64,000 nt of DNA, taken from assembly GCA_963717435.1 (NCBI GenBank), contig OY970332.1, positions 512,001 through 576,000 on the forward strand, in the 5' to 3' direction. Positions 914 to 55,530 of this stretch are shown here, in pieces. Every line of letters begins with the position of its first letter. Position 1 is the stretch's first letter. The translations under genes were made by a program, and so were the position numbers. The DNA comes from an uncultured bacterium. GTDB taxonomy: Bacteria > Babelota > Babeliae > Babelales > Babelaceae. Under the pieces are notes generated by a model. That model saw only the letters and a program-made list of their open reading frames with translations. It was not told the origin of the DNA and did no database searches.

Positions 914-976
914 TGCGCCATGGTTCGATACACCCATGCTTCGCCAAGGCTCCGCAGGGCACTCACCACGAGCGCA
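914..976 (-). repeat. Palindromic repeat copy 1 (intergenic)
   Basis: Reverse complement reads tgcgctcg-TGGT-gagtg-ccctgcggagccttggcgaagcatggg-tgtatcga-ACCA-tggcgca. Confidence 0.9.
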
Positions 977-989
977 CTTAAAGCCACAT

Positions 990-1051
990 CGCTCGCCCTG
1001 AGTGTTTTTCGTAGCTTTAGCGAAGAAAAATGTATCGAAGGGTTACGAGCG
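990..1051 (+). repeat. Palindromic repeat copy 2 (overlaps start region of the next gene)
   Basis: cgctcg-CCCT-gagtg-tttttcgtagctttagcgaagaaaaa-tgtatcga-AGGG-ttacgagcg. Confidence 0.9.
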
Positions 1052-2436
1052 TGAATTACAAATTTTTTTGTGTATTTATTTTTTGCGCAATTTCAGCAAT
1101 TTTATTATTTAAAGTCCCAGACAAAAACAGATTAGAACTTGATTCGCAACTTTACGATAGAATTGCGAAAAATTTTGCCCAGAATTCAGATCTTTCAGAC
1201 CCAAATAACCCACAGGTTATGCCCGTTACTGCGAAGGGATACCCGCTATTTTTGGGCTTAAATTTTAAATTTTTTGGGATAAATTACAAAATAATAATAC
1301 TGCTTCAAATATTACTTTCTCTTTTATGCTTTTATTTAATTTATAATATCTGCTTATTATTATTTAACACTCAAGTGGCAAATATATCGCTATTTCTTTC
1401 ATGCATAAATTTGGGGTTTATAATTCACGCTCAGTTTATTCTTACAGAAATATTATTAGTTACTTTTTTATTATTATTTTTATATTTTTTTTCACAATTT
1501 ATAGTGCAAAAAAAATTTTATTCTATCACTCTGGCAGGGCTATTTCTCGGGTTTTCTATGCTGGTCAAGCCCGTTGCGATATTTTTTTTACCCGTCCCCG
1601 TTATGTTAATTTTTTTTAGTAACTTTTTTGATAAAGTAGAAAGTCGCGTCGTCCCGCAGTGCCCGGCGGAGCTTAATGCGAAGCCTGGGAGTGCCCGAAG
1701 GGTGTATCGAGGGATAGCGGGTTTCTTGCTAACTTTTTTATTACCAGTCTCTGGATATATTTTATTTAATTATAAAAAATACAGTACTTTAAGCCTAAAT
1801 CCCGCGGGTTACGAAAATATATACAGATACTATCTTCCCCGTGTTCTTTCTTGCAAAGATAATATTAGTTTGGAAATGGCAGAAAAATCTGTAGACAGAT
1901 TTGTAACTGATAGCAACAATATAAACTCCAGATTCACGCCCGAGCTTAAAAATTTATTATTACAGACAGTTCTAAATAGCCCAGCTATTGCATGTTATAT
2001 CTGGTTCAAAAATGTAATAAAAACTTATTTTGGATTATATACAACAGAATTAAAAGTGCTTTTGAATAATAATCTGCGTGGCGGGACATGTTCTTATTTT
2101 AAAATGTCGGGAAATATTTTTGAAAAAATAACAAATTATATTAACTTCGGAACAAATTCTAGATCAGTTAAGCTAATTGGTTTTTTGGAGATATTTTATT
2201 TATTACTACAGTATTTATTAATATTTTTTGTATTTTATAGCTTATTCAAAAATAAGCAGTTTGCTGTTTTATTACTATTTTTGGGCTTTATAATCTATTT
2301 TGCACTAATAACGGGACATGACGGATTTGGGCGATACCGGATGGTGCTTGAACCAGTTTTAATTATCTTAAATTCTGCTGGAATAGCACAGTTAATTAAG
2401 ATATTTTCCCATCAGGCGGTGAAGAAATATGCTTAA
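1051..2436 (+). CDS. ArnT/PMT-like multi-TM glycosyltransferase (GT-C fold)
   Basis: Many TM helices; DSQLYD, GYPLFL, LTE, LVKP, GRYR motifs; start taken at GTG 1051 because the ATG at 1030 lies within the repeat. Confidence 0.75.
   Translation: MNYKFFCVFIFCAISAILLFKVPDKNRLELDSQLYDRIAKNFAQNSDLSDPNNPQVMPVTAKGYPLFLGLNFKFFGINYKIIILLQILLSLLCFYLIYNICLLLFNTQVANISLFLSCINLGFIIHAQFILTEILLVTFLLLFLYFFSQFIVQKKFYSITLAGLFLGFSMLVKPVAIFFLPVPVMLIFFSNFFDKVESRVVPQCPAELNAKPGSARRVYRGIAGFLLTFLLPVSGYILFNYKKYSTLSLNPAGYENIYRYYLPRVLSCKDNISLEMAEKSVDRFVTDSNNINSRFTPELKNLLLQTVLNSPAIACYIWFKNVIKTYFGLYTTELKVLLNNNLRGGTCSYFKMSGNIFEKITNYINFGTNSRSVKLIGFLEIFYLLLQYLLIFFVFYSLFKNKQFAVLLLFLGFIIYFALITGHDGFGRYRMVLEPVLIILNSAGIAQLIKIFSHQAVKKYA
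1645..1719 (+). repeat. Palindromic repeat copy 3 (in-frame within the GT-C gene)
   Basis: cgcgtcg-TCCC-gcagtgcccggcggagcttaatgcgaagcctgg-gagtg-cccgaaggg-tgtatcga-GGGA-tagcg; encodes RVVPQCPAELNAKPGSARRVYRGIA. Confidence 0.85.
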
Positions 2437-3547
2437 AAATAAAAAAGTTAATATTGTGATTATGGCAGGCGGTTCTGGAAAGCGCTTATGGCCGCTAAGT
2501 AGATCAGAAAAGCCAAAGCAATTTATAAAGCTTGGCAGCGAAAAAACTTTGCTCGAAGAGACTGTCGATAGAGTTAAAAATATTTTTGATAATCAAAAAA
2601 TATCTGTTGTAACTTCAAAAAACTATGAAAATTTTGTCGAAAGACTTGTTGGCGAATCTATCGACCAGATAATAGTTGAGCCTGAGGCAAAAAATACTGC
2701 CCCCGCTGTTTTATATTCTTGTTTAAGTTTGCAAGTTAATCCTGAAGATATAGTTATATTTCTTCCATCAGATCACCATATACCTGATTTTAATAAATTT
2801 AGGGAAAGTATTGTTCAGGCCGCGCAGGCTGCTGGTGAATCAGATAATATTGTTCTTGTCGGAATCAAGCCCAATTACCCTGCTACTGGCTACGGTTATA
2901 TATCTGTAGATACTAAAAATAAGTCTAAAAAAATTAATTATTTTGATGTTGAAAAATTTCACGAAAAACCAAATTTGGAGCTGGCGAAAAAATATTTTAA
3001 TTCTGAAAATATGCTTTGGAACTCTGGAATAATTTGCGCCAAGTTGTCTGTTTTGCTGGATGCTTTCGAAAATCAGTTTCCTGGGATAAAAAATCTATCA
3101 ATTACGTCACGGCCTAAACCCGCTCGTGGTGAGTGTTCTTCTGAGCTGTTTAAAAGCGAAGAAGAATGTATCGAACCATGCGGGTCAAGAGAAACTTCAA
3201 AAAAAATATATGATATAATTCCCGAAATATCTTTTGATTACGCAATACTTGAAAAAGTAAATAATATAAGCGTAATAGCGGGAGATTTTGTTTGGTCAGA
3301 CGTGGGAACATTAGACTTGTTTATAGCAGCAAAAAAAGATATTAATAATCAAGAAAATTTAATATCTATAGAGTCTGAAAATAATTTAGTTGAAGTTCAG
3401 AACAAGTTAGTAGTTTTAGTTGGCGTTCATGACCTATGCGTGGTCCAGACAGATGACGTGTTATTAATATCCGCCAAAAAAGATATTGATAAAATAAAAG
3501 ATGTTATAATCGAGTTAAATAATTCTGGAAAAAAAGAATATTGTTGA
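2429..3547 (+). CDS. manC: Mannose-1-phosphate guanylyltransferase
   Basis: IMAGGSGKRLWPLSR..PKQF, EPEAKNTAPA, PSDH, FHEKP, WNSG, SFDYAILEK, WSDVG. Confidence 0.95.
   Translation: MLKNKKVNIVIMAGGSGKRLWPLSRSEKPKQFIKLGSEKTLLEETVDRVKNIFDNQKISVVTSKNYENFVERLVGESIDQIIVEPEAKNTAPAVLYSCLSLQVNPEDIVIFLPSDHHIPDFNKFRESIVQAAQAAGESDNIVLVGIKPNYPATGYGYISVDTKNKSKKINYFDVEKFHEKPNLELAKKYFNSENMLWNSGIICAKLSVLLDAFENQFPGIKNLSITSRPKPARGECSSELFKSEEECIEPCGSRETSKKIYDIIPEISFDYAILEKVNNISVIAGDFVWSDVGTLDLFIAAKKDINNQENLISIESENNLVEVQNKLVVLVGVHDLCVVQTDDVLLISAKKDIDKIKDVIIELNNSGKKEYC
3118..3185 (+). repeat. Palindromic repeat copy 4 (in-frame within manC)
   Basis: acccgctcg-TGGT-gagtg-ttcttctgagctgtttaaaagcgaagaagaa-tgtatcga-ACCA-tgcgggt; encodes PARGECSSELFKSEEECIEPCG. 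Confidence 0.92.
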
Positions 3548-3580
3548 AAAAATTATTAAAGATTACTGAAAAATAAAAAC

Positions 3581-6058: not shown

Positions 6059-7258
6059 GTGAAAAATATTAAATTTTTATTGTTAATTTTATTTTTTAAT
6101 TCTTACGGCGCAAATCGATTTCAACCTTTCAAGTCTGACCTGAGTAAAGGAGTACCTGCTAAAGAAATTGAGGATCTGCAGGATTATATCGAACACTTTA
6201 GTCGACATTTGGAAATTCAAGATAAGGTAATTAACGATGCAATTAACAGTATCCCAGAGAAATTCAAAGAAAAAATAAATTTACTAGCAGACGCATCAAA
6301 AAAGAAATCAGCAACGGAATTTACAAGTCTTTATAATACAACATTTAGGGAGCTATTCTTACTATGGTTCAAGTCTGACCCAGATATATGGAAGCAGATA
6401 CTAAAGAATACTGCTCAGGAAGCAATTGTACCAGCGCTTATGGGTTTGATTTTCCCTGTTATTTTTATTATAGTGCCACCTTTGTTACCGGCACTATTAG
6501 CGGATGTTTATCGTACCTACAAAAAATACCCTGACTATGTCGATATTGGGAAAAATATATTAGAAAAAATAGATAGCGATTTTGCCAAATATAGAGTTTC
6601 TTATAGCAAGCAACAGATTAAGGATTATCTTAATGCCGCATCTAAAGATATGTTTTTATTCGAAGTGCAAACACCAATTGGATCAAAAGAGTCTGGCGGA
6701 ACTCTTAAAAAAGAAGTTGGAAATCTGAAAAATATTAATTTGCCGACTCAAAAAGAAATAGATGAGTTAAAAGCCAAGTTAGAGAATAAAGAAGTATCTC
6801 AGAAAGAATTTCAAGATTGGGTAGAAAAAAATACAAAATTAACGGCTAAACTTATAATTTTTAATCGCTGGATGAAAGCATTAGGAGATCTGAGTGAATT
6901 TTTGGTTAAATCTGGCTCAAAAGATTTGCCGCCACTATTTAGTGAAGTGCTTGCGCTAAATGACGATATTTTGGATAAAATATATAACTTAAAATCGGCT
7001 AGCGAAAGAAGTGGGACTGTAATTCGGGAGGGTTCGAGATCTTTTATTAAGCTGGATATGGGACAGGTGATAAATGATCTAAAAGACAAATTATCAAAAA
7101 TACAGAAGAAAATAGATAGCGTATATGTATTCAGACAAGGGCCGAAAGACGCAAAAGAGTTATTGCAGATTTTAGTTGGGGTTCCTGGAAAGAAAAATGG
7201 CATATTCGATAGAGTTATTGAAAAGATGGAAACAGATTTTGGAACTATGGGGAGATAG
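6059..7258 (+). CDS. Secreted hypothetical protein, paralog A of tandem pair, with a central hydrophobic segment
   Basis: Signal peptide MKNIKFLLLILFF; long identical blocks shared with 7260..8522. Confidence 0.8.
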   Translation: MKNIKFLLLILFFNSYGANRFQPFKSDLSKGVPAKEIEDLQDYIEHFSRHLEIQDKVINDAINSIPEKFKEKINLLADASKKKSATEFTSLYNTTFRELFLLWFKSDPDIWKQILKNTAQEAIVPALMGLIFPVIFIIVPPLLPALLADVYRTYKKYPDYVDIGKNILEKIDSDFAKYRVSYSKQQIKDYLNAASKDMFLFEVQTPIGSKESGGTLKKEVGNLKNINLPTQKEIDELKAKLENKEVSQKEFQDWVEKNTKLTAKLIIFNRWMKALGDLSEFLVKSGSKDLPPLFSEVLALNDDILDKIYNLKSASERSGTVIREGSRSFIKLDMGQVINDLKDKLSKIQKKIDSVYVFRQGPKDAKELLQILVGVPGKKNGIFDRVIEKMETDFGTMGR

Positions 7259-7259
7259 T

Positions 7260-8522
7260 ATGAAAAATATTAAAGTTTTATTTTTAATTTTATTTTTTAG
7301 TTCTTATTTTGATGTCAAAAATGGATATCTAAACTGTTCGATGCAGCAGGTGTACGACTCCTTAAACCGTGTAAATCAATCTAGTCTCTTTTCGAAAGAT
7401 CTGAGTAATGGGGTAGAAGATAAAGACATTGAGCAACTAGAAGATTTTATTAAAAAATTTGTTAAAGAGATATCCCATATCTACTATGGTTATGATCCGT
7501 ATTTCATAGAAATTGAAGGCACAATGCCGCTTATTCCAAAAACATTCAAAGAAAAAATAAATCTACTAGCACAATCAAAAAACAAAACATCACGAGAATT
7601 TACAGCCCTTTATAACAAAACGTTTAAAGAGTTATTCGAAATATGGTTTCAATCTAAAGAAAATATATGGAATTTGGCAGTAAACAACTTACGGACTAGC
7701 GTTATAAATGATTTGGAATTCTTCATATGCCTATTTGCCGTCACGATCCCTCTGTTTCCGATATTGATAATACCGACTATGGTGAAATATTATTCGATAA
7801 TTTCTCCATACGGTGAACTATCAGGACCATATGCCGAACTTGGGAAGAAGTTATTAGAAAAAATAGATAGAGATTTTGCAAAGTACACAATTTCGTATAG
7901 CAAAAAAGAGATGATGGATTATCTTAATGCCGCATCTAAAGATATGTTTTTATTTGAGGTGCAAACATCGAAAGATTTGGGCAGAACTGTTAAAACAGAA
8001 GTTGGAAATCTGAAAAATATTAATTTTCCGACTCAAAAAGAAATAGATGAGTTAAAAGATGAGGCAAAGAAGAGTTCTAAGTTATCGACGCAAGAATTTC
8101 AAAATTGGGTATCTAATAACAAAGCTTTGACAAACAAGCTTATAACCTTTAATCGTTGGATGAAAGTCTTGAGCGACCTGCGAGAATTTTTGGTTAAATC
8201 TGGCTCAAAAGATTTGCCTCCAATATTTAATGAAGTGCTTGCGCTAAATGACGATATTTTGGATAAAATTGTTCTTTTGAGAGATGCATCAAATAAGGGC
8301 GGGGCTGATGTTCTAATTAAGAACAATATAAAACTGCTAAAAGAAAAATTATTAAAAATACAGAAGAAAATAGATAGCGTATATGTATTCAGACAAGGGC
8401 CGAAAGACGCAAAAGAGTTATTGCAGATTTTAGTTGGCGTTCCTGGAAAGGATAAACGTATATTTGGCATATTTGATAGAGTTATTGACAAGATGGAAAC
8501 AGATTTTGGGCCCAGTAAGTAA
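7260..8522 (+). CDS. Secreted hypothetical protein, paralog B of tandem pair
   Basis: Start at ATG 7260 after GGAG (MKNIKVLFLILFF); shares DYLNAASKDMFLFEVQT, EFLVKSGSKDLPP and SVYVFRQGPKDAKELLQILVGVPGK with paralog A. Confidence 0.8.
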   Translation: MKNIKVLFLILFFSSYFDVKNGYLNCSMQQVYDSLNRVNQSSLFSKDLSNGVEDKDIEQLEDFIKKFVKEISHIYYGYDPYFIEIEGTMPLIPKTFKEKINLLAQSKNKTSREFTALYNKTFKELFEIWFQSKENIWNLAVNNLRTSVINDLEFFICLFAVTIPLFPILIIPTMVKYYSIISPYGELSGPYAELGKKLLEKIDRDFAKYTISYSKKEMMDYLNAASKDMFLFEVQTSKDLGRTVKTEVGNLKNINFPTQKEIDELKDEAKKSSKLSTQEFQNWVSNNKALTNKLITFNRWMKVLSDLREFLVKSGSKDLPPIFNEVLALNDDILDKIVLLRDASNKGGADVLIKNNIKLLKEKLLKIQKKIDSVYVFRQGPKDAKELLQILVGVPGKDKRIFGIFDRVIDKMETDFGPSK

Positions 8523-8595
8523 TTAAATAAGTTATAGTTCTCGTAATTAAAAAAATTTGTTATTTTGTGGCAATAAATTTAATTGCGGGAACTGT

Positions 8596-9573
8596 ATGCA
8601 AAAAGATTCAAAAATATATTTGGCTGGGCATGAGGGGCTCGTTGGATCGGCTCTCTTGGAAAAATTGAAAAAGTCTGGATACCAAAATATAATTACAAAA
8701 AGTTTTTCTGAACTTGATTTAAGAAACCAAGAACAAGTTAATAGTTTTTTTAAGATAAATAAGCCAGAATGTGTTTTTATCTGTGCAGCAAAAGTTGGCG
8801 GCATAGTCGCAAATATGACCAAACCTGCTGAGTTTATTTATGACAACTTAATGATCGTTGCGAATTTAATTCATGCAAGTTATGTTTATAAAGTAAAAAA
8901 ATTATTGTTTTTGGGTTCTTCTTGTATCTACCCAAGAGATTGCGCACAGCCGATCTGTGAAGAGTATTTGCTAACTGGCCCACTTGAACAAACCAACAGA
9001 GCTTATGCGATTGCAAAAATATCTGGCATAGAACTTTGTCAATCTTATAATAAGCAGTATGGGACAAATTTTATCTCTTGCATGCCCACAAATTTATATG
9101 GGCCAGGAGATAATTTTGATCTAAATAGTTCCCATGTTATCCCCGCTTTGATTTCCAAAATAATTACCGCACGCGATAATCGCGAAAAGTTTGTCACAAT
9201 TTGGGGAACTGGTAACCCAAAAAGAGAATTCTTGTATGTTGAAGATCTTGCAGACGCGTTAATATTTTTGATGCAAAACTATAATATCTCAGAAATAATT
9301 AATATTGGAACTGGGCAAGATTTGTCGATAAAAGAGTTGGCGCAAACTATAAAAAATATTACAAATTACACAGGCGAGTTGGTTTTTGATACAACAAAAC
9401 CAGATGGAACGCCAAGAAAATTGCTTAATGTTGAACGAATCAGTAAACTAGGCTGGAACGCAAAAACTGAGTTAAAAGATGGGCTTAAAAAAACGGTAGA
9501 TTGGTACGAAGCAAATATAAAATTGGGAGCTGGATATGAGCGAAGCAAAAATCACAAAACTATTTCGACGTGA
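8596..9573 (+). CDS. fcl: GDP-L-fucose synthase
   Basis: [61 protein letters not shown]. Confidence 0.96.
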
Positions 9574-11359
9574 CTTGTTTTTTATTAGACCGACCCTTCG
9601 ATACATTTTTTTCGCGCCAACTCGCTCAAAAAACACTCAGGGCGAGCGGTCTTCATGGCGTTGTTCAAAGTTTCATAATAAGCTCGTGATTTTCTTGTTA
9701 TCTGTACTGAATATTTTTAGTTTATTAAGTTATTCTACACGTGTTGAAATTGTTGTGCCAACCTACAAAAATCAAGATGTATGCATAGCAAATCTTAGAT
9801 CGCTAGTATCGCAAGATTATCCAAGAGACCTGTTTCATATAACAATAGTCGATGACATGTCCCCAGATAGTACAAATTATTTAATCAAAAAATATATAGA
9901 CGAAAATAATTTAAATAAGCTAGTTAAAATTATTACCAATAAAAAACGCACGGGGGCGCTTGGTAATTTCTATAAAGTTATTCATGATCTTCCCGGTGAT
10001 ACTGTGGTTTTTACGGTAGATGGGGATGACGAACTTAATGGCCCAAATGTTGTAAAAAGAGTGATTAAAGAATACGAAGAAAATAATGCATGGGTAACTT
10101 ACGGGCAGTTTAAATGGCTATCTTCTGGTAGTATGGGAATTTGCAGAGATATTCCTGATGACGTAAAAAAGCGTAATGCTTTTAGAAGTCAATCATGGGT
10201 CTTTTCTCACCTGAGAACTTTTAAAGCTTGGTTATTTCAACAAATAAAATTTGAAGATCTATTGTGTCCCGCAACTCTTGATAATAGATCTTCTGGATTA
10301 TCAAAATCTGAATTTTTCTACGACAAAGCCTGGGATCTGTCATTAATGTTTCCAATGCTTGAAATGGCGCGTGATGGGCACATAAGATATATTCCAGATG
10401 TTTTATATATTTATAACGACATGAGCCCACTTAACGACCACAAAGTTGATGCAGGCCGCGTGGTTGCATTAGACGCTTATGCTCGTAAGCGAAAAAAATA
10501 TGACGCTCTGTCAGCCCCGGTTTATATAGATAATGTACCGCAAAATATAGACCTGATTGTGTATTCTAAAGACAGACCGCTGCAATTATTAAGTTTTCTA
10601 GAATCACTAGGTAAATATGCAACTGGGGTTAATAAAGTTTTTGTTGTATACGCTTCCAGCGATGCGTATGAGCCTGGATACAAAGAAGTTTTTGAAAAAT
10701 TTAATGGGCTAACCATTTATCGACAAAATAATAATCTGCATGGAACTGATTTTAAGCAGATTAATCTCGATATAATAAACCAAATGGTTTCTAATTACGT
10801 AGCCTTTGCAGTTGATGATATTGTTGTAAAAGACAGATTCGATTTTGCAGAATGCGCCAAATATTTAAGACACACAGACGCATACGGGTTTTATTTGCGA
10901 CTTGGCGATCATGTTGATTACTGTTATACAGAAAATAGATATCAGGGCGTGCCCCACTTAATTCCGGTTTCAGAATCTATGGGCGCTTGGCGATTCTCTT
11001 CTGGTCAAGCTGATTGGAACTATCCAAACTGTTTAGATATGACAGTTTATAAAAAAGCAACCGCGATAAGTGCCATAACAAATTTAAACTATAGAGCTCC
11101 AAACTCTATGGAAGGCACATGGGCAGGGCGCGCGGACCACAACAAAATTGGGCTCTGCTATTATGACTCTAAAATTGTTAACTTGCCGTTAAATTTAGTT
11201 AACACAGAAATCACGGGCAACAGACACATGCATAGTTATTCTGTGGCGCAACTTTATGACTTGTTTAGGCGCGGATTTAAAATGGATATTAATAAACTAG
11301 AGAAAATTAAAAACAGATCGGCCCATATGGAATATGAGCCAAGTTTTATCGCAAGATAA
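9536..11359 (+). CDS. Two-domain glycosyltransferase (GT2 N-domain plus a second GT-A-like domain)
   Basis: [27 protein letters not shown]; second domain YSKDRPLQL...FAVDD; GGAG precedes ATG 9536; start uncertain. Confidence 0.8.
9587..9652 (-). repeat. Palindromic repeat copy 5 (antisense, in the N-terminal part of the 9536 ORF)
   Basis: Reverse complement agaccgctcg-CCCT-gagtg-ttttttgagcgagttggcgcgaaaaaaa-tgtatcga-AGGG-tcggtct. Confidence 0.9.
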
Positions 11360-11391: not shown

Positions 11392-12840
11392 ATGAAAAAA
11401 TTACAACAAAGAAAAAAGTTTTTTATAATACTAGTAATATCAGCAGTATTTTTATCAGTTTTTTACATATACCAGGTTTTCTTTAAGTTTGATCAATGCG
11501 TAGATTTTGATAAATCTATGAACGAGGGACTAAAGATAACATTTGGTGCCCACTCTACCCCTGAAGCTGAAAAAATCTGGCTCAGCGACTTGAAAAATCT
11601 TTATAAAAAAAATTGCTACGACAGTTTTGCCGAAAGTTCTGAATATAAGATCCCACCGATAATTCACCATGTTTGGCTCGGAAGCGAAATCCCAAACCAA
11701 TATAAATACTTAAGACAAACTTGGGTTGAAAAGCATCCGGGTTGGATTTTCAAATTATGGACCGATGCGGACGTAGAGCCATTTAAACTGGAAAATAAGT
11801 TATTATTTGATGCTGCACGAAACTATGGCGAAAAATCAGATATATTTAGATACGAAATATTAAAACGCTATGGCGGTTCTTATTTTGATACAGATTTTAT
11901 GTGTATTAAATCAATTGCGCCGTTACATAGATCCAACGACTTCTATACCGGAATCATGAACGCTGGTGAAGTTTTGATCGCTATAGGGGCATTGGGTTCG
12001 ATTCCTGATCATCCGTTATTAAAAGCAGTCATGACTTCTATAAGTGAAGCAGGTTCAAAATATGATATAAATAATATTATGGAAAGAACTGGACCGATCC
12101 ATTTTACAAAGATATTTGTCAAAGAGGCGCCCAAATTATCTGGTTCTATAGTTGCATATCCTGTAACGTATTTTTATCCTGTACCAAATACTATAAGAGG
12201 GCAAAACTGTTTTGATAAGGCAAAAGAATTTATAAAACCTGAAACTTTCGGTGTTCACTTGTGGGAATGCAGTTGGATGCGGCCGCAGGCTTTCTTGCAA
12301 CAAAATCAAATCGACAATTACAGTATAAATTGTAAGGACGAACACTTTGGCAGATTTGAAGTAGACAAATTTATTGATAAATATTTTGCCAAAAAACAGT
12401 TGGGCGTTTTTGTTGATATCGGTGCAGAAGATGGGGCAATGTTCAGTAACACTTATTTTTTGGAAAGATCGAGAAACTGGAAAGGAGTTTGTATAGAGCC
12501 TGAAACAAAACAGTTTTCAAGTCTTTCAAACAACAGAATAAGTTTCTGTGCAAATTGTGCAATAATCTCTCAGGGCGATAATAATAAACTTAAAGATCCA
12601 TACCCATATATTTATGATCTTGCTGACATATTACAGTACTGCAAATTTGATAAGGTCGACTATCTCTCGATTTCATCAAATCGTGCTGAAGTAATATTAA
12701 GGGCAGTAAATTTTAGCTTGTGCGACATAAAATTAATCAGTTTAAATTCCGGCCAAGACGCAGCCGAGAATATACTTATCAAAAATAATTATAAACTGAT
12801 AAAGGATCTTGGTGGTATTAAAGTTTTTGAGAAAAAGTAG
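11392..12840 (+). CDS. GT32/OCH1-like DXD glycosyltransferase fused to an FkbM-like methyltransferase domain
   Basis: IPPIIHHVWLG, KSDIFRYEILKRYGGSYFDTD, TGP; C-terminal VFVDIGAEDG..SNTYFLE..WKGVCIEP. Confidence 0.85.
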   Translation: MKKLQQRKKFFIILVISAVFLSVFYIYQVFFKFDQCVDFDKSMNEGLKITFGAHSTPEAEKIWLSDLKNLYKKNCYDSFAESSEYKIPPIIHHVWLGSEIPNQYKYLRQTWVEKHPGWIFKLWTDADVEPFKLENKLLFDAARNYGEKSDIFRYEILKRYGGSYFDTDFMCIKSIAPLHRSNDFYTGIMNAGEVLIAIGALGSIPDHPLLKAVMTSISEAGSKYDINNIMERTGPIHFTKIFVKEAPKLSGSIVAYPVTYFYPVPNTIRGQNCFDKAKEFIKPETFGVHLWECSWMRPQAFLQQNQIDNYSINCKDEHFGRFEVDKFIDKYFAKKQLGVFVDIGAEDGAMFSNTYFLERSRNWKGVCIEPETKQFSSLSNNRISFCANCAIISQGDNNKLKDPYPYIYDLADILQYCKFDKVDYLSISSNRAEVILRAVNFSLCDIKLISLNSGQDAAENILIKNNYKLIKDLGGIKVFEKK

Positions 12841-26564: not shown

Positions 26565-26574
26565 GTTTATAATC

Positions 26575-26982
26575 CTAATAAATAACTTGGTTTGGCTCTT
26601 GAATCTCACTAATTTTATTTCTTACAAAATTAAGAATAAAAGTGGCTTTTTTTATCGCATCTAAAACTTCTTCTCTATCGATATAAAATCTATCATCTGG
26701 GTATCTGGAATAAATCGCATATGGGAGTAGATCCAAAGCATCGCTTAATAGTTTTTTAAAAGAAGAATCATGTTGGGAACACAACAGCAATAGTCTCTCT
26801 AAGTCATGTGTTTTTGGTATGTTTTGTTTTTTATAAACTAAATATGCTTTAAGCGCTTTCTCTGCACATTGTTGGGTATGGTATGAAGCTGTATCAAGTG
26901 TTTCGTTATCATCTTTTGATAATTTTATAGCTGATTTAAGATCGCCCAAAGATTTGGCTAACCAAGTTTCATGATTTAGCAT
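26575..26982 (-). CDS. HEPN domain protein (MNT-HEPN pair)
   Basis: YHTQQCAEKALKA, KTHDL, SRYP. Confidence 0.9.
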   Translation of the reverse strand: MLNHETWLAKSLGDLKSAIKLSKDDNETLDTASYHTQQCAEKALKAYLVYKKQNIPKTHDLERLLLLCSQHDSSFKKLLSDALDLLPYAIYSRYPDDRFYIDREEVLDAIKKATFILNFVRNKISEIQEPNQVIY

Positions 26983-27292
26983 AAATCAGCTTCCCATTTT
27001 TTAAAATTTTACTTATAAATGAGTTTGGATCTTCAGCCAATTTATTTAATTCAGATTTTGTATAAACAAGTAAATCTTTTGATAGATCTAAACCCCATAG
27101 TGATTCATAACCAGATTTGCCCCGTTTATGTCTTTTATTTTCATCAGAGTTTTCGACAACTATTAATAAGTCTAAATCACTGTCTTCGTTGGGAGTTCCC
27201 CATGCATATGATCCGAAGAGATATATTTCTAAAGGGTTATAAACTTTTATTAATCTATCTTTTACTTCTTCTATTATTTCTTTAGTTATCAC
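26969..27292 (-). CDS. Minimal nucleotidyltransferase (MNT)
   Basis: LFGSYAWGTPNEDSDLDLLIV; overlaps the HEPN gene. Confidence 0.9.
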   Translation of the reverse strand: MITKEIIEEVKDRLIKVYNPLEIYLFGSYAWGTPNEDSDLDLLIVVENSDENKRHKRGKSGYESLWGLDLSKDLLVYTKSELNKLAEDPNSFISKILKNGKLIYAKS

Positions 27293-34819: not shown

Positions 34820-35666
34820 ATCTATTTTTTGATTTTGCTATAGCATGGGGCTGATGTTTTTTTGCGGGTTTTATATTTGCCATTTTTTCACGTTTTACGC
34901 GTAACGACAAGCTATTTTTTAGAGAACTTACTAAGTTGTTTTCTTTTTTTGTGCTTTTCTTTTTTGCTATAGATTTTTTTGATTTTTTACTTTTACCTTT
35001 TTTAATTTCTTGGGCTATTCTTTGCGCAAACGTATCTTTATAAATATCTAATTTAAAAGTTTTGCTGCTAAGCTTATTTATTAGTTGTTCGGCAAGCTTT
35101 AGTTCTTGGGTGCTAAATTTCGGCTCTTTTTTTAAAACATTAATAGCATCTATATCTCTAATTTCATAGCTATAATGCAAAGTAGATAATAATAAAACAT
35201 TTTCTTGCGGCATAATTGCGCATATATACTCTTTGTCGCGCATAACAAATTGTCCTATTGCAGCAGTGTGCGTTTCTTCCAGGGCGCGCTTAAATAAAAA
35301 ATACACTTTTTCCGAATGTTTTTCCGGGAGAACGTAATAGTGTCCCTCAAGATATATCGGCTTGATTTGGCCAAGATTAACAAACTGTTTTATATCTATA
35401 GTGTCAGTTTTTATTGCCCTCAATTCGTGCAGCTTTTCTTGTGTCAAAATAAAATAGCTTCCATCAGGTAATTTTAGGCCCTTAACAATATCGTGCCATA
35501 CTATCTCTTTATTGCAGTTTTTGCAGAAGCGCTCATAAGTAATTGGGGTGTGACACTTCTTGCATAATAATTTAAACCCTAAAGTATGTTCTTGAATTGC
35601 TGGGTAAATACTTATGTTAATATTTACCAACCCGAAAGACACCGATCCGTTCCATATTGACTTCAT
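34818..35666 (-). CDS. ku: Non-homologous end-joining protein Ku
   Basis: SIWNGSVSFGLVNI, IVKG, TLHY..EIR, YKDTF, basic C-terminal tail. Confidence 0.93.
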   Translation of the reverse strand: MKSIWNGSVSFGLVNINISIYPAIQEHTLGFKLLCKKCHTPITYERFCKNCNKEIVWHDIVKGLKLPDGSYFILTQEKLHELRAIKTDTIDIKQFVNLGQIKPIYLEGHYYVLPEKHSEKVYFLFKRALEETHTAAIGQFVMRDKEYICAIMPQENVLLLSTLHYSYEIRDIDAINVLKKEPKFSTQELKLAEQLINKLSSKTFKLDIYKDTFAQRIAQEIKKGKSKKSKKSIAKKKSTKKENNLVSSLKNSLSLRVKREKMANIKPAKKHQPHAIAKSKNR

Positions 35667-35685
35667 ATAGTCTCCAATAAAAAAC

Positions 35686-36753
35686 TTATTTTTTAAAAAT
35701 AACTGATTTCGGGGACTCTCTTATAACAGATTTTGCTTCTTTATCATCTCTTAACCCCTTAAACCTGCCAACTCTCAGCTTTCCAGAATTTGTCCACTGC
35801 GCAAATTGAAATTCGGCCACCAAAATCGGTTTGACCCAATATATATTTTTTGTTGCTATATCAATCTGATCAAATGGGCATTTTTTAATTGTCAGTCGCT
35901 TAAGTTTATTTCCCAAAAATTTTAACATGCCCTGGTTAAATCCTGTCCCCACTTTGCCTGCATAAATAAATTTATTTTTATTATAATAGCCAACAAGTAG
36001 TGCACCGAAATTTTCACGTGCCCCCTGCGGCTCTGTATATCCTCCAATTACCAGTTCTTGACCAAGCGAACATTTAAACTTTAGCCAACTGTTTGCCCGG
36101 TATTCAACATATTCGCTGTCCGCGCGTTTAGCCATTATTCCTTCCCAATGTAACTTGCATGCCTCATGGAAAAATTTTACGCCGTCTCCAATTTTGTGTT
36201 CGGAGTAAGCTAATTTCTTGTTCCACTTAAAAATTTTTTTTAAAATCTTTTTTCTATAAATTAGGGGAAGTTTTTTTGTGTCATATCCGGCAGCATAAAG
36301 CAAATCAAAAACCCAATATTTTATTGTTGTTTTTTTCTCTTTTTCTTCTATGAGCCCGCTTTGCTTTAGATTAATTCTTCCCTGAAGTAGCTGAAAGTCT
36401 GAGATTCCTGATGCACCTAGGGCAACAATTTCGCCGTCTATAATAAAATCATCAGCGGGCTCTTTGGTTAAAGCTTCTAAAATTTCAGGGTATTCTTGAT
36501 TTATTAAGTTATTGTTGCGCGACATTAGAGAAACTTTGCCATTTTTTTTAAAGGCTATGCATCGTATGCCGTCATATTTATGTTCATAAAGCCAGTCTTT
36601 GCTTGAGAAGTAATCTTTGGTAAGAGTTGCAAGCATGGGGTGTATAACTTGGGGTTGGGGCTTTTTTTCAATTTTTTTTAAAAATTTTTCGGGTAGGTTA
36701 TTAAATATATTTTCAGATATATTTGTTTTTTTATAGGCCATACTCTCTCCCAT
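35686..36753 (-). CDS. ligD: ATP-dependent DNA ligase (stand-alone LigD-type ligase domain)
   Basis: PMLATL, EHKYDGIR, IDGEIV, VFDLL, EGIMAK, WLKFK, YAGKVGTGF, LRDDK; adjacent to Ku. Confidence 0.9.
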   Translation of the reverse strand: MGESMAYKKTNISENIFNNLPEKFLKKIEKKPQPQVIHPMLATLTKDYFSSKDWLYEHKYDGIRCIAFKKNGKVSLMSRNNNLINQEYPEILEALTKEPADDFIIDGEIVALGASGISDFQLLQGRINLKQSGLIEEKEKKTTIKYWVFDLLYAAGYDTKKLPLIYRKKILKKIFKWNKKLAYSEHKIGDGVKFFHEACKLHWEGIMAKRADSEYVEYRANSWLKFKCSLGQELVIGGYTEPQGARENFGALLVGYYNKNKFIYAGKVGTGFNQGMLKFLGNKLKRLTIKKCPFDQIDIATKNIYWVKPILVAEFQFAQWTNSGKLRVGRFKGLRDDKEAKSVIRESPKSVIFKK

Positions 36754-40321: not shown

Positions 40322-42364
40322 ATGTGCGGTATTGCTGGTTTTGCGAACATAAAAAATTCAAAATTTTCAATACAAGATTCACAACTTGATGTTTTACACA
40401 ACTCAATCGCCCACAGGGGCCCTGACGGATTTGGAATCTGGAAATCTGATAAATTTGAAACAGCTTTTGTTCACAGAAGATTAGCGATTGTAGATCTAAC
40501 TTCTGGCGGCCATCAGCCTATGCTAGACGATCAAGAAAAAATAGTAATCACTTTTAATGGTGAGATTTATAATCACGAATCTATTAGAGCAGAACTTGAA
40601 AAACTGGGGCATAATTTCAGATCACGTTCTGATACAGAAGTAATAATTTACGCTTATAAACAGTGGGGGATATCTTGTTTGGATAAACTAGAGGGTATGT
40701 TTGCTTTTAGTTTATTTGATTTGAACAAAAATGAACTTTATCTTATTCGCGATCGAATTGGCGTCAAGCCATTATATTTTAGTTTGCAGAATAATATCTT
40801 AAGTTTTGGCTCAGAAATCAAAGCATTATTTAGTCTAGATTTTGTTGAAAAAATTTTGAGCCCTCAGGGGATTTATCACTATCTTACTTATCTTGTCACC
40901 CCGGCACCATTAACTATTTATCAAGATATATACAAACTTCCCGCTGGGTATTATTTGAAATTAGACTCACAGAAAAATATTAGTTTTGTTAGATGGTATG
41001 ACCCTCTAGCACTGTCTTCCGACGTCCTGCTTCCAGCCGTCGACAAATCCCAACCCGCTCATCCCGAGTGTTCTACGAAGCCTTGGCGAAGTAGAATGTA
41101 TCGAGGGACGCAGGGCGGGCCCGGCGCGCTACCCGAACAATTTTACGCAGATAAACTTCTTGAACTTTTAGACTCGTCAGTAAAAAAGCGACTAATGTCA
41201 GACGTGCCGCTAGGCGTTTTTCTTTCAGGCGGGGTCGATTCGAGTTTGTTATTGGGGCTAATGTCAAGACATACAGACAATTTAAAAAGTTTTAATATAG
41301 CTTTCGATTCTGGGGGCGATTATAACGAACAGAAATACGCACGCAAAATAGCTAATATATTTAAATCGCAACATACAGAACTTGTTATTGGCGAAAAAGA
41401 GGCGTTCGAATTTTACCCCCGCATGATATACTATCAAGACGAGCCTTTGGCGGACTGCGTTTCTATCCCGCTGTATTATATTTCCCAAAGTTTACGTGAT
41501 TCTGGCGCTCGTGTTGTCCTAATCGGTGAGGGGGCAGATGAGCTATTTTTTGGTTATAGCATGTACGCAAAATATCTGCGCGCAAATAATATTTTATCTA
41601 AATTTAATTTTTTACCAGGTAGTTTAAAAAAAATAATAAGTTTATCTGCTTCAAAAATTGCGCCAGAAAAGTATTCTCTTGTAGATCTGCTTGATAACTG
41701 GTCAAAATCCAGGCCCATATTTTATTCTGGTGCCATTGCTTTCCCTGAAAGCATGAAAAAAGAATTTTTTATTGCACAAAATTTTTCAGAAGACCCTATA
41801 ACTTCACAAATTTACCCGGATATATCTCAGGGCTTTGATAGCTATGAATATTTAAATTACCATGCAAAAAATTTTACTAATTCAACACAAATTGGGAATG
41901 ATAATTTTTCTAATCTCATGTTATATCTAGAATTAAAAAACAGACTTCCAGAATTGTTACTAATGCGCGCTGACAAGATGACCATGGCGGCGTCAATAGA
42001 GGGCCGCGAGCCATTTTTGGATCATAGTTTAGTTGAATTTGCTTTTAATATCCCCACAGATTTAAAATACAAAAATGGGACCACAAAATATATTTTGAAA
42101 AAAGCAGCTGAAAAAGTTTTGCCCCATGATATTATTTATCGCAAAAAAGTTGGCTTTGCGGCCCCAACCAAATTGTGGTTTGAAAATGGCAAATATTTTA
42201 AACCATATTTTCAGGATTTACTAACTACAAAAAGAGATTCTATAAAGCAGTATTTTGATATAAATTTTATTGAAAATATGCTCAAACAGCACCAGGATGG
42301 CAGTAAAAATTATGCTGATCAACTTTGGACATTGCAAAATTTATTTAGCCTAGATTGTTTTTAA
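40322..42364 (+). CDS. asnB: Asparagine synthase (glutamine-hydrolysing)-type amidotransferase
   Basis: MCGIAG, HRGPD, FNGEIYNH, RDRIGVKPL, LSGGVDSS, GEGADE, DKMTMAASIEGREPFLD. Confidence 0.93.
   Translation: MCGIAGFANIKNSKFSIQDSQLDVLHNSIAHRGPDGFGIWKSDKFETAFVHRRLAIVDLTSGGHQPMLDDQEKIVITFNGEIYNHESIRAELEKLGHNFRSRSDTEVIIYAYKQWGISCLDKLEGMFAFSLFDLNKNELYLIRDRIGVKPLYFSLQNNILSFGSEIKALFSLDFVEKILSPQGIYHYLTYLVTPAPLTIYQDIYKLPAGYYLKLDSQKNISFVRWYDPLALSSDVLLPAVDKSQPAHPECSTKPWRSRMYRGTQGGPGALPEQFYADKLLELLDSSVKKRLMSDVPLGVFLSGGVDSSLLLGLMSRHTDNLKSFNIAFDSGGDYNEQKYARKIANIFKSQHTELVIGEKEAFEFYPRMIYYQDEPLADCVSIPLYYISQSLRDSGARVVLIGEGADELFFGYSMYAKYLRANNILSKFNFLPGSLKKIISLSASKIAPEKYSLVDLLDNWSKSRPIFYSGAIAFPESMKKEFFIAQNFSEDPITSQIYPDISQGFDSYEYLNYHAKNFTNSTQIGNDNFSNLMLYLELKNRLPELLLMRADKMTMAASIEGREPFLDHSLVEFAFNIPTDLKYKNGTTKYILKKAAEKVLPHDIIYRKKVGFAAPTKLWFENGKYFKPYFQDLLTTKRDSIKQYFDINFIENMLKQHQDGSKNYADQLWTLQNLFSLDCF
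41054..41119 (+). repeat. Palindromic repeat copy 6 (in-frame within asnB)
   Basis: cccgctca-TCCC-gagtg-ttctacgaagccttggcgaagtagaa-tgtatcga-GGGA-cgcagggcggg; encodes PAHPECSTKPWRSRMYRGTQGG. Confidence 0.92.
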
Positions 42365-49178: not shown

Positions 49179-50123
49179 TTATTCGTTTTCAACTATCGCT
49201 TTTGGTCTAGGCGTGTAAAGTTTTAAAACCTTATTGGCAACAAATCCCATTTTTTCCAATTTTTTAATCATCTCTTCGCTTGTGACGTCTACTGCGATTG
49301 TCACTTTATCGCAGTCTTTGTTTATAGCTTTATAGCAAAGTTCAATTATCATTTCTTTTTTATATTTATTCCAATCTCCACCTTCAATCCCAGGGCTTTT
49401 CATTGTTTGAATTACATCCAAATAAGCAGCGCGTTCTTCGTTTCCTTCAAGACTTGGGAACTCTATTATTCCTGTGACTATTGGTCTCTCGTTATGGGGC
49501 TCATCAAATTTGTAATATCCAACATAGCCTCGCACCAAGTCTTTTTTGTCTATTTTTGTAATATCAAATTTTGAATAATATTCTTTTACTGTGTTTGGCA
49601 ATTGAGAATTGCTCTCCTGTATTAATTCGAAATCGCCGAGTGTTTCTTTGCTCTTTGCTCTCGCGAGTTTCAGGTCAGTTTCAATAATATCTTCTGGCCT
49701 ATATCCTTCCAAGTTTTTTGTCATGGAAATAAAACTTGCGCATTGCAACAAGCCATTTTCTTTTAGAGATTCTTCCAGTTTTTTCGATTCTTCAGATTCA
49801 ATTAAATACCAAAGACAGGGTCTGTTTTTTTCTGTAAAATAACCAACTATTTCTTCGACCTTTTCTTCAGATATATTTTTTGCGCCCGCAAAAACGTAGT
49901 TATATATTGGGTTATCAATTCCAGAATCTACCCATATTAAATCGTTATTTTTCGTAATTTGTGCCCCGAAGACCCTCTGGGGAAAATATACCATGTATTC
50001 TCTCATAAGGGACGTTAGAGCCCGCTCATTCGAAGAAGTTTCTTCTTCTTTGAGATTTTTATCCATGGGCACAATATTTGGTGCAACGACAAAAATTAAA
50101 CTTAGGGATAATAATTTTTTCAT
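49179..50123 (-). CDS. Secreted protein with GNAT-like fold
   Basis: Signal peptide; YNYV...PCLWY...LKENGL...SM N-domain and LEKMGF C-terminal GNAT motif. Confidence 0.55.
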   Translation of the reverse strand: MKKLLSLSLIFVVAPNIVPMDKNLKEEETSSNERALTSLMREYMVYFPQRVFGAQITKNNDLIWVDSGIDNPIYNYVFAGAKNISEEKVEEIVGYFTEKNRPCLWYLIESEESKKLEESLKENGLLQCASFISMTKNLEGYRPEDIIETDLKLARAKSKETLGDFELIQESNSQLPNTVKEYYSKFDITKIDKKDLVRGYVGYYKFDEPHNERPIVTGIIEFPSLEGNEERAAYLDVIQTMKSPGIEGGDWNKYKKEMIIELCYKAINKDCDKVTIAVDVTSEEMIKKLEKMGFVANKVLKLYTPRPKAIVENE

Positions 50124-52241: not shown

Positions 52242-53135
52242 GTGAAAAATATATTATTAGTTTGTTTAGTTTCATTTTCTATTTTTTCTATGGAGAACGC
52301 CGATATATCTGACGCTATTTCCTCTGAAAATAAATATACGTTCCGGCAAGCCTGTGAACAAGATTTGCTGGAATTGCTAGAGTTAATTAATACTCAGGCG
52401 ATTCATGACAAAAATAAAATCGTTATTTTGCCTAAAAAATTTAGGGAAATGATTTTAAAAAAAACAATAGGATCGGGACGTTTATTTGTGGCATTAGATG
52501 AAAATCGAAAAATTGTCGGTTATAAAAAACTTTTTTTGATTACAGATGAATCTGAAAAGCAAGCTATTTTGCAAGACGAAATAAGATGTCTGGCAGGAGG
52601 AGTAAAAAAGTACTCGGGGTTTATTGATGAGTCTTTTAATTTTAGGCAGGAGTCTAGACAGGAAGATAACAAAGATATTTTGGATGCTGATAAATTCTAT
52701 GACGTTTGTATCTATAATGGCGGTGATTATACCCTTCCACAAAGTAGAGACCAGGGTATAAATTCAAAATTAACAGACGCATCTTTAAGGTATTTAAAGC
52801 CAATAATTCTTGATTATTTAAAAGCCAAAAATGCCAATAAGGTTTCTATGTTTTATGGAATAACAGATGAAAATTCGGGGGATTTTCCAGGACATAAGAA
52901 TGATCGAACGGTATCAATAAGTAAATCTTTTATAAAATTTATAAAATCTTTAAAGGATTCCGATCTTAAAGGCTTTGACTTTGAAGATATTGTCCTAAAA
53001 TACAAAAGATATCAGGCATTTATGCCAACATTTGATCCGGAATCAACTGAATTGGCGCCATTGCCCGATGATCAATCTATCTCAGGAAATGGTTGTGTTT
53101 TAACATATGAATTTCAAGAAAGAATTTATGAATAA
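52242..53135 (+). CDS. Secreted hypothetical protein, GNAT-like
   Basis: Signal peptide; FRQA..DL..LLELI, LFVA...IVGY, TLPQSRDQGINSKL (acetyl-CoA motif A-like). Confidence 0.6.
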   Translation: MKNILLVCLVSFSIFSMENADISDAISSENKYTFRQACEQDLLELLELINTQAIHDKNKIVILPKKFREMILKKTIGSGRLFVALDENRKIVGYKKLFLITDESEKQAILQDEIRCLAGGVKKYSGFIDESFNFRQESRQEDNKDILDADKFYDVCIYNGGDYTLPQSRDQGINSKLTDASLRYLKPIILDYLKAKNANKVSMFYGITDENSGDFPGHKNDRTVSISKSFIKFIKSLKDSDLKGFDFEDIVLKYKRYQAFMPTFDPESTELAPLPDDQSISGNGCVLTYEFQERIYE

Positions 53136-54453: not shown

Positions 54454-54529
54454 GCATAATCCCTTGCGTATATTAAGAAGCTATGTAATATAAAAATTAT
54501 ATTTAAATATAATTTACGGGGGAGTTACC

Positions 54530-55450
54530 TTGGAAAAATTTAATAATATATTTTTAATAGTAGTTTTAAGTTTTATTCCGGGATGTTTTTTTTACAAAAA
54601 AAATGTCACTCCTGCTGTCGGCAAAACAGATAAGGTAACAGTTTCTGTTCATGGAACTCTTCCCCCCGTTGCAAGAAATTTTGTAAATGCGCTAGAATCT
54701 CCAAAGGGGTTATGCCCACTTATGGAGAGACCAAATGCGTTGGTTCTAAGCAGGATGGGTTATGTGCTGCATGAGACCGACCCAAAAATGTTTCCCGCTG
54801 AGACATTTTATCTTTATGGATGGTCGGGCAAATTATGCTTTGAAGAACGTGAAATTACAGCAGAAGATTTATATAAAGCTTTAAAGAAATTATCCGGTAA
54901 AATTACGCTTATCGGTCATAGCCATGGCGGCAATGTGATATTAAATCTGGCTCGGGTTGCCGAAAAATACAATGACAAAAATTTTAGAATTCACAGAATA
55001 ATTTTATTAGCGACGCCCATACAGGAAGTATATGAAAACTTAGAAAAATCTCCTGTTTTTGAAAATATCATATCGATTTATTCAAACACAGATGTTATTC
55101 AGGTCCTGGATCCTCAGGGCCTATATCAAAAAACAAAAGAACATAAAAAGATAAATGGCACAGATAATTCAAAGTCTCCGATGTTTTCAACAAGACTGCT
55201 TCCAGATAACCCCAAAATTAAGCAGGTCAGAGTCTTGCTGAACAAAACCAATCCGGGCCATATGGATTTTGTCAGGGCCAAATTCTTAAGGGCTCTGCCT
55301 AAAATCTTGAAGCTTATTGATAATGCTCCTGAGGGCCAACGCCGCTTTATTGTCAATATTGACCGTCGAGGTGAGCCATATTTTGTCAAAGCTGTACAAA
55401 GGGGGGACGGCCGGCGAGTATATGTCCCAATTGATTCCAAAACGGCGTGA
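54530..55450 (+). CDS. Alpha/beta hydrolase, putative lipoprotein
   Basis: FIPGC lipobox-like site, VHGT, GHSHGG, LATP, GH. Confidence 0.8.
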   Translation: MEKFNNIFLIVVLSFIPGCFFYKKNVTPAVGKTDKVTVSVHGTLPPVARNFVNALESPKGLCPLMERPNALVLSRMGYVLHETDPKMFPAETFYLYGWSGKLCFEEREITAEDLYKALKKLSGKITLIGHSHGGNVILNLARVAEKYNDKNFRIHRIILLATPIQEVYENLEKSPVFENIISIYSNTDVIQVLDPQGLYQKTKEHKKINGTDNSKSPMFSTRLLPDNPKIKQVRVLLNKTNPGHMDFVRAKFLRALPKILKLIDNAPEGQRRFIVNIDRRGEPYFVKAVQRGDGRRVYVPIDSKTA

Positions 55451-55456
55451 TTTACG

Positions 55457-55530
55457 CCTCGGCGCTCGCCCTGAGTGTTTTTCGTAGCTCTTTAGAGCGT
55501 AGAAAAATGTATCGAATGGGTGCGCCGGGG
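55457..55530 (+). repeat. Palindromic repeat copy 7 (intergenic, upstream of efp)
   Basis: cctcggcgctcg-CCCT-gagtg-tttttcgtagctctttagagcgtagaaaaa-tgtatcga-ATGGG-tgcgccgggg. Confidence 0.9.

Follow-up and report, generated by a model that had tools for sequence, protein, structure and literature searches.

Seven copies of a structured repeat

The 64,000-nucleotide (nt) stretch analyzed here, referred to as the window, spans positions 512,001 to 576,000 of contig OY970332.1 (assembly GCA_963717435.1) from an uncultured bacterium of the family Babelaceae, and it carries a family of short, G+C-rich palindromic repeats, three of which lie in frame within genes. An initial annotation of the window had listed seven G+C-rich copies on both strands. 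The seven copies and a hand-written structure were used to build a covariance model (R1), which was run over the window with filters off. R1 returned exactly these seven copies, at 51–82 bits (E-values 3.6e-21 to 2.8e-12), with the next best match at E = 1.6; the scores of the seven are partly circular since they form the training set, while the lack of an eighth copy is not. The pattern GAGTG-N15-45-TGTATCGA occurs 6 times in the window against 0.01 expected from 100 shuffles, and TGTATCGA by itself occurs 9 times against 0.95 expected. AGTG, GCG, and TGTATCGA form invariant columns across all seven aligned copies, whose G+C content is 47–65% compared with about 29–38% in the window.

Five of the copies fall in the first 10 kb, within a cluster of GDP-mannose/fucose and glycosyltransferase genes (Table 1). 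The copy in asnB sits inside a second glycosylation cluster, and copy 7 lies between an unnamed open reading frame (ORF) and efp. The best relatives of asnB and manC carry the source names Dependentiae, Babeliales, or TM6, which makes the source of the window a Dependentiae-like genome. Copy 3 is the most degenerate member, with CAGTG in place of GAGTG and a 14-nt internal duplication, and copy 7 has a long G+C-rich outer stem and folds with z-scores of −4.4 (RNA) and −3.7 (DNA).

Table 1. Positions and contexts of the seven repeat copies in the window.
Copy	Position	Strand	Context	P2 helix	R1 score (bits)	E-value
1	912–978	−	Intergenic, head-to-head doublet with copy 2	TGGT/ACCA	76.1	2e-19
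2	986–1051	+	Intergenic	CCCT/AGGG	82.1	3.6e-21
3	1643–1723	+	Sense, in frame, GT-C/PMT-family membrane glycosyltransferase ORF 1030–2436, ~residues 205–232		51.3	2.8e-12
4	3117–3187	+	Sense, in frame, manC-like nucleotidyltransferase ORF 2429–3547, ~residues 230–253		72.9	
5	9585–9652	−	Antisense, between stop of fcl-like epimerase gene (8557–9573) and GT2 domain of ORF 9536–11359		61.1	
6	41052–41117	+	Sense, in frame, asnB ORF 40322–42364, ~residues 244–266		77.7	
7	55459–55528	+	Intergenic, 9 nt past stop of ORF 54530–55450, upstream of efp		75.0	

Architecture and covariation

The architecture first proposed for the family, CGCTCR-N4-GAGTG-[hairpin]-YGTATCGA-N4', was borne out and could be extended to a full unit of the form 5'-[outer arm ..CCGCTC]-R-[N4]-GA-GTG-[variable hairpin]-YGTA-TC-GA-[N4']-Y-[(GA)GCGG.. 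outer arm]-3', with a length of about 55–81 nt in the window and in other genomes. Roughly 18 unpaired or half-paired nucleotides (CCGCTCR, GAGTG, and YGTATCGA) are nearly invariant, whereas the three helices are almost free in sequence provided that pairing holds. The outer stem, P1, is variable but usually includes CCGC/GCGG and is followed by an unpaired TCR. P2 is a covarying 4-bp helix, with TCCC/GGGA found in the window in addition to the two versions given in Table 1. Above P2, a conserved GA...TC mini-helix lies within an asymmetric 5/8-nt bubble whose 5' strand is GAGTG and whose 3' strand is YGTATCGA, and the apical hairpin, P3, varies in both sequence and length. RNA and DNA folding parameters give each unit the same fold.

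Pairing holds for 84% of cells in the seven-copy alignment, where 11 of 19 pairs have changed on both sides. The covariation score was matched by none of 500 shuffles, and partners that were slid out of register paired in only 37–51% of cells. Among 100 distinct copies from the wider search described below, P2 is 98.0% and P3 99.1% paired, with 426 cells changed on both sides compared with 129 ± 11 in shuffles and at most 55% pairing in slid controls; fitting these copies to the model biases the alignment in favor of structure, but the effect size and the slide control are large nonetheless. Fold z-scores of single copies are modest (−0.1 to −5.6 with RNA and +0.2 to −4.2 with DNA parameters), so it is covariation that chiefly supports the structure.

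The conserved CGCTC and GAGTG boxes are also complementary to each other, with one G-T pair (window 990–1004, 3121–3135, and 9634–9648 on the minus strand), and this complementarity may represent an alternative conformation. In three window copies, CGCTC-N5-GAGTG followed by a T-rich hairpin arm or T-run was flagged as terminator-like.

Copies within genes add peptide segments

As the initial annotation had claimed, the GT-C, manC, and asnB ORFs remain unbroken by the copies they contain. The three sense copies share one reading frame (..GCT CRN NNN GAG TGT..), and each adds about 22–27 residues. Alignment with orthologs had been set beforehand as the test that could refute an insertion. None of the 11 aligned orthologs, one of which is 77% identical, has the asnB segment around QPAHPECSTKPWRSRMYRGTQG, which lies in the linker between the GATase (residues 51–170) and Asn_synthase (residues 279–672) domains recognized by Pfam. 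The manC segment KPARGECSSELFKSEEECIEPCGS is absent from 10 of 11 aligned orthologs. In an AlphaFold2 model of this protein (mean pLDDT 72), which rests on the shallow alignment A5, residues 225–252 are predicted to be coil with pLDDT below 50, flanked by confident helices on either side. The GT-C segment around SRVVPQCPAELNAKPGSARRVYRGIAG is likewise absent from 10 of 10 aligned orthologs; many library matches to this protein align as two stretches that skip approximately residues 202–226, and the segment comes just after the part matched to the PMT domain, where the orthologs differ among themselves. On these alignments, the peptide segments of GT-C, manC, and asnB are insertions.

Close relatives of manC differ further in their insertion state. 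The closest, P0122 (81% identity), has no insert at the site used in the window but carries PSIQ...VTQGER, the peptide that an antisense copy encodes, at another site. In P0123 (75% identity), the eleventh ortholog of the alignment, the site used in the window is occupied by a longer and different insert that includes TRDER, an antisense-copy reading, together with KSIEGC. Three close orthologs with three insertion states indicate recent turnover.

A fourth copy (copy 5) had been placed in the probable 5' end of a GT2 gene. It does correspond to codons 17–39 of the longest ORF, but the GT2 domain recognized by Pfam starts at residue 72 and the ATG of this ORF overlaps the preceding gene by 38 nt; copy 5 is either an N-terminal extension or a 5' leader of the gene. 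A related ambiguity concerns the GT-C gene, where the first ATG of the listed ORF is the ATG within the TGTATCGA box of copy 2 (window 1030–1038). The true GT-C start therefore probably lies further downstream, and gene callers likely over-extend N-termini at such copies.

Among the matches listed from other genomes (see below), most copies span short ORFs only, and two clear in-gene cases were found. One lies in a prepilin peptidase (locus L076), between the A24_N (residues 28–110) and Peptidase_A24 (residues 166–276) domains; the other is a nested pair in a heparinase II/III-like protein (L077), between its N (residues 38–304) and C (residues 393–597) domains.

Occurrence and arrangement in other genomes

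We scanned a species-genome collection with the pattern CGCTC-N5-GAGTG-N15-45-TGTATCGA and obtained at least 120 loci; these counts, and those given below for the matches listed, are lower bounds and not a measure of prevalence. R1 confirmed copies in 60 of 80 loci and in 27 of a further 40 (87 of 120 among the matches listed) from about 40 genomes, with 146 matches in total, or 142 without the overlap between L007 and L008. P2 complementarity is missing from the remaining 33 loci, which appear to have matched by chance. They include all six of the listed loci that come from cultured isolates, and all 87 confirmed loci come from metagenome-assembled genomes (MAGs).

By record title, 16 of the confirmed genomes among the matches listed are Dependentiae, TM6, or Babeliales, and 8 are 'bacterium' MAGs without a taxon label and with low-G+C flanks. 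The other 16 are labeled Myxococcota/Myxococcales (4), Dehalococcoidia/Dehalococcoidales (4), Pseudomonadota/Alphaproteobacteria (6), a 'Bifidobacterium' co-assembly bin (1), and a Solimonas MAG (1). Flanks of 54–71% G+C show that some hosts are not A+T-rich Dependentiae. In these hosts the stems, too, are rich in G+C, but the unpaired core stays the same. The family is thus wider than the window's lineage, and its hosts carry several phylum labels.

Most copies in other genomes (again among the matches listed) are intergenic and are frequently arranged as inverted doublets, a form taken by copies 1 and 2 of the window and seen at 20 or more other loci. Hence, while the initial annotation's comparison to gene-invading Rickettsia palindromic elements (RPEs) is supported with regard to in-frame insertion, the family is not mainly a gene invader: elsewhere its copies are mostly intergenic doublets that resemble repetitive extragenic palindromic (REP) sequences and bacterial interspersed mosaic elements (BIMEs). 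In convergent spacers the two copies are ordered '+ then −' in nine of nine pairs (L006, L064, L005, L032, L015, L041, L069, L071, and L051), such that each gene meets a sense copy first, whereas other spacer types contain five '+ then −' and six '− then +' pairs. Copies at gene 3' ends are weakly biased, with 23 sense and 14 antisense, as counted from stop-to-stop ORFs rather than annotated genes. Copies also adjoin tRNA genes in L050 (1374–1447, between two copies), L057 (1399–1470, followed by two tandem copies), and L073 (1063–1135).

Several comparisons bear on mobility. The spacer between hisS (58% identity) and an unnamed neighbor (41%) contains a copy in L036 but none in the syntenic region of the window. 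In L077 (1463–1569), an inverted copy is nested in the apical loop of another, and the flanks of the inner copy (..TTTTGAA[inner]GAAAAAA..) fit a 3-bp GAA duplication; in L012 (1476–1569), the hairpin of one copy consists entirely of another, inverted copy. Near-identical copies form a subfamily particular to each genome. In one MAG labeled Myxococcota (L031, L028, L043, L027, L009, L115, and L094), what is repeated is a composite of about 150 nt, made up of two inverted element subtypes and common flanks that contain an inverted repeat themselves (..TTGTCAC..GTGAAATGACAA..), an arrangement that resembles the REP doublets known as REPINs.

Other features of the window

Two housekeeping genes of the window appear broken. 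The secA gene is split into at least three ORFs (20191–22754, minus strand), with homopolymers T6 and T10 in the gaps, and clpB is split in two by a frameshift near RRHPY|SVVLFDE (57793–60352, plus strand). These breaks are either assembly indels or real pseudogenes, and none coincides with a copy of the element. The GDP-sugar gene cluster is interrupted by two adjacent paralogous ORFs on the plus strand (6059–7258 and 7176–8522, encoding 399 and 448 residues) that match no Pfam family and share long identical stretches toward their C-termini. ORF 11392–12840 (plus strand, 482 residues) contains a DXD glycosyltransferase domain (Gly_transf_sug) and gives a short, weak match to a TcdA/TcdB glycosyltransferase profile; these matches would fit a host-directed or cell-surface glycosyltransferase.

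Nature of the element

Two features of the helices bear on whether the structure matters in DNA or in RNA. Across P2 and P3 of the 100 copies, about 1135 cells include 16 G-T pairs and 17 mismatches, and the stems are almost purely Watson-Crick. Furthermore, 28 of 136 copies with P2 complementarity have C-GNA-G apical triloops, compared with 8 that have C-GNRA-G. GNA triloops closed by C-G form exceptionally stable DNA mini-hairpins. The rarity of G-T pairs, the GNA triloops, and the presence of copies on both strands therefore favor a structure with a role at the DNA level, the simplest form being a single-stranded hairpin. Taken with the architecture, insertions, and arrangement described above, we consider it probable that the family comprises small, non-autonomous palindromic mobile DNA elements of the REP/RPE/MITE kind (MITE, miniature inverted-repeat transposable element).

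A structured RNA that serves the host (a 3'-untranslated-region stabilizer, an RNase processing site, a terminator-like element, or a small ribozyme), with the in-gene copies being incidental, would share several properties with the repeat. An invariant core, freely covarying stems, and an apical hairpin of variable length are typical of functional RNAs, and the sense-first order in all nine convergent-spacer pairs, the mild sense excess past 3' ends, and the terminator-like strings with T-runs in three window copies point in the same direction. RNA helices, however, evolve via G-U intermediates, whereas in the repeat G-U is as rare as mismatches, and the triloops favored in DNA outnumber GNRA tetraloops. 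Antisense copies are common, some of them inside ORFs, and a ribozyme or terminator within manC, asnB, or GT-C would harm the mRNAs of these genes. An intrinsic terminator was rejected specifically, as the T-run follows A+T-rich variants only and G+C-rich members lack it. A search against Rfam at gathering scores found no match in the window and only tRNAs in 20 diverse loci, and in E-value mode nothing came near threshold, the best match to window 880–1080 being a miRNA model at E = 0.3. We therefore regard a host-serving RNA as quite unlikely. A tRNA-derived origin was also dropped: ARAGORN detected no tRNA or tmRNA in the window, and the likeness between GTATCGA and a T-loop is loose.

The repeat could instead be a chromosomal DNA site for a conserved host protein, rarely spreading and kept by selection rather than selfish. 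A precedent is the binding of gyrase and integration host factor to the REP/BIME sites of E. coli. Such a site would suit a core of about 18 nt that stays constant in genomes of 34–71% G+C with several phylum labels, the intergenic position among housekeeping genes in alternating, BIME-like doublets, and the lack of a dedicated transposase in the window and scanned flanks. Differences in presence and absence between close relatives and copies within coding sequence are hard to square with a needed site, and nested copies and genome-specific, near-identical subfamilies resembling recent bursts also speak against it. A universal factor would in addition predict a wider presence than the confinement of all 87 confirmed loci to MAGs. 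On balance we find this explanation unlikely. That no discrete element exists, and that the pattern reflects chance, compositional similarity, or misassembly of a low-quality MAG, is almost certainly wrong: the apparent frameshifts in secA and clpB do suggest an imperfect assembly, but pattern counts far exceed those in shuffles, E-values reach 1e-21, and the same architecture recurs in about 40 independently assembled genomes.

Several observations nevertheless weigh against mobile elements of the REP/RPE/MITE kind. The outer stem is paired in 52% of cells among the 100 copies and is thus present in only about half of them; the copies without a 3' partner for CCGCTC conserve this box all the same. 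Perfect Watson-Crick arms could arise without selection through template-switch 'correction' of quasi-palindromes. The uniform '+ then −' order in convergent spacers is not predicted by a purely random inserter, and only the nested case in L077 hints at a target-site duplication, of 3 bp. One unpaired core under at least four phylum labels is unusual for a REP or MITE and could be explained equally well by a conserved host factor, and the taxon labels of the MAGs may themselves be wrong.

The search for a mobilizing enzyme also counts against mobility, although its negatives are weak, covering 64 kb of the source genome and at most 3 kb around other copies and, in G+C-rich loci, ORFs of 200 residues or more. 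In agreement with the initial annotation, which had recognized no transposase or nuclease in the window, none of 66 window ORFs matched a transposase, HUH, recombinase, or homing-nuclease family (Pfam, E ≤ 1e-5), and a relaxed re-scan of 30 window ORFs (E ≤ 0.05) gave only sub-threshold matches and no credible enzyme. No transposase, HUH, or recombinase family was found among 162 ORFs flanking copies in 60 loci (150 and 12 scanned from the 210 ORFs listed in L001–L080, leaving out loci without a model match and L079:2–409). These neighbors encode common housekeeping functions, ankyrin proteins, and toxin-antitoxin systems. An all-against-all blastp comparison of 1393 flank ORFs likewise revealed no recurrent neighbor family of an uncharacterized kind, the clusters reflecting synteny or ankyrin and ABC proteins.

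Three window ORFs were considered as candidates and rejected. ORF 25563–26609 (minus strand, 349 residues) matches the C-terminal domain of G2P, the filamentous-phage replication protein (Pfam G2P_X_C), at E = 1.9e-4 and 22.3 bits, below the cut-off of 25, and has no PHROG or PDB match; it adjoins a HEPN/nucleotidyltransferase pair (26578–27292). An ERCC4 match in ORF 52242–53132 (E = 0.03) and a PHROG endonuclease-family match in ORF 49182–50123 (E = 0.002) were not credible. The window also encodes a Ku and ATP-dependent DNA ligase pair for non-homologous end joining (34821–36753, minus strand). Homologous ligase genes adjoin copies in two Dependentiae loci (L038 3–494 and L080 1–1527), which may reflect synteny or chance.

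Relation to known repeat families

RPEs are described in a review (PMC10969869) as palindromic sequences of about 150 bp in ten families, found between genes and in frame within unrelated metabolic genes, where they add peptide segments, and with no known transposase. The window family is similar in that a palindromic repeat lies in frame in unrelated ORFs and adds peptide, as seen in three intact window ORFs, in combining intergenic and in-gene copies with no transposase known, and in having an obligate intracellular bacterium as host. The family is set apart by size (units of 55–81 nt rather than about 150 bp) and by a Dependentiae-like host of another phylum, and its invariant unpaired core spans several phylum labels.

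REP sequences are imperfect palindromes of 20–40 nt with a conserved 5' GTAG-type head and are mostly extragenic. They form inverted doublets of two subtypes in genome-specific populations, and their function is thought to need a single-stranded DNA hairpin with a few unpaired bases. The window family resembles REPs, BIMEs, and REPINs in size range, genomic position, genome-specific populations, and the use of inverted doublets as a repeated unit, as in the window pair, the 20 or more other loci, and the composite repeat of the MAG labeled Myxococcota. It differs in a consensus (CCGCTCR...GAGTG...YGTATCGA) that lacks a GTAG head, in having three helices and an asymmetric bubble rather than a single stem, and in the intragenic position of three of the seven window copies. 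REPINs are described as pairs of inverted REPs mobilized by REP-associated tyrosine transposases (RAYTs) (PMC3337134, 10.1101/2022.05.22.493013). No RAYT (Y1_Tnp) was present among the window ORFs or the 162 flanking ORFs scanned.

MITEs, according to the same review as for RPEs, are small, non-autonomous, stem-loop-forming elements, usually in intergenic regions or 3' untranslated regions and occasionally fused in frame with ORFs; they are typically A+T-rich, derive from identifiable insertion sequences (ISs), and have terminal inverted repeats and target duplications (PMC10969869). Correia, ERIC, QMITE, and other such elements share with the window family a small size, stem-loop formation, a mostly intergenic position, and occasional in-frame fusion. 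In contrast, the window family forms G+C-rich islands in an A+T-rich genome, and no parent IS was seen in the window or scanned flanks. About half of the copies have an outer stem (CCGCTC/GAGCGG and variable bases) that serves as an inverted repeat, and the GAA case is the one instance that fits a duplication.

In integron attC sites and the subterminal hairpins of IS200/IS605 elements, conservation extends to the shape of the single-stranded DNA and to a few unpaired bases but not to the stem sequence, and the terminal structure varies. The attC boxes R''/R' read RYYYAAC / GTTRRRY and stand at cassette boundaries, in same-orientation arrays beside intI. The window family is comparable in working principle only: its consensus has no such boxes, it forms inverted doublets between housekeeping genes rather than cassette arrays, and no tnpA, tnpB, or intI adjoins its copies in the window or scanned flanks.

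The suggestion that the element may be undescribed has held up, given that neither an Rfam match nor a relevant publication came to light. A blastn search in distant mode with window 905–1060 found no match among plasmids and phages. A literature search with the motif strings returned unrelated papers only, and within a search that did not extend to subscription journals we found no paper linking such repeats to Dependentiae; three Dependentiae genome papers (PMC4378268, PMC6561590, PMC4776705) contain no mention of palindromes, MITE, hairpin, or inverted repeat.

Proposed mechanism and significance

For mobile elements of this kind, we propose that the unit would fold as a single-stranded DNA hairpin and that a trans-acting enzyme may recognize the invariant bubble together with the overall shape, by analogy with HUH/Y1 enzymes acting on REP or IS200/IS605 hairpins. 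Such an enzyme would copy or move the unit to new sites. Insertion would be largely indiscriminate and filtered by selection, such that most survivors lie in intergenic spacers. Within genes, a copy would be tolerated if it adds a multiple of three bases, introduces no stop codon, and falls in a surface loop or inter-domain linker, where it could persist as about 22–27 extra residues. Of this picture, the data establish the family with its structure and DNA-type pairing, the insertion of the three peptide segments, the differences between relatives, the nesting, and the genome-specific subfamilies, while present-day mobility, the single-stranded intermediate, and the class of enzyme are inferred.

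A broader possibility, which we put forward tentatively and regard as doubtful, is that a single family of single-stranded DNA hairpins with a core of about 18 nt extends across several phyla, is moved by an enzyme or a hijacked replication-repair activity not yet linked to such repeats, and is now writing peptides into housekeeping and glycosylation enzymes of Dependentiae. If this were true, the family would generate new protein sequence as RPEs do but independently of them, the second system of this type and one with a far broader range of hosts.

To our knowledge, the in-frame colonization of genes by palindromic repeats has so far been a textbook oddity of Rickettsia. The same outcome is now seen in an unrelated phylum of protist parasites, with a repeat of well-defined, testable anatomy that also occurs in many uncultured lineages, and it is this in-frame gene invasion outside Rickettsia, together with a core shared across phylum labels, that makes the family stand out. 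For the annotation of Dependentiae MAGs, the repeats call for caution regarding G+C-rich islands in ORFs, spurious TGTATCGA start codons, and extended N-termini. The defined motif enables a hunt for the missing mobilizing enzyme through gene-family co-occurrence, and the in-gene copies, as a natural experiment, can show where protein loops accommodate random insertions of about 25 residues.

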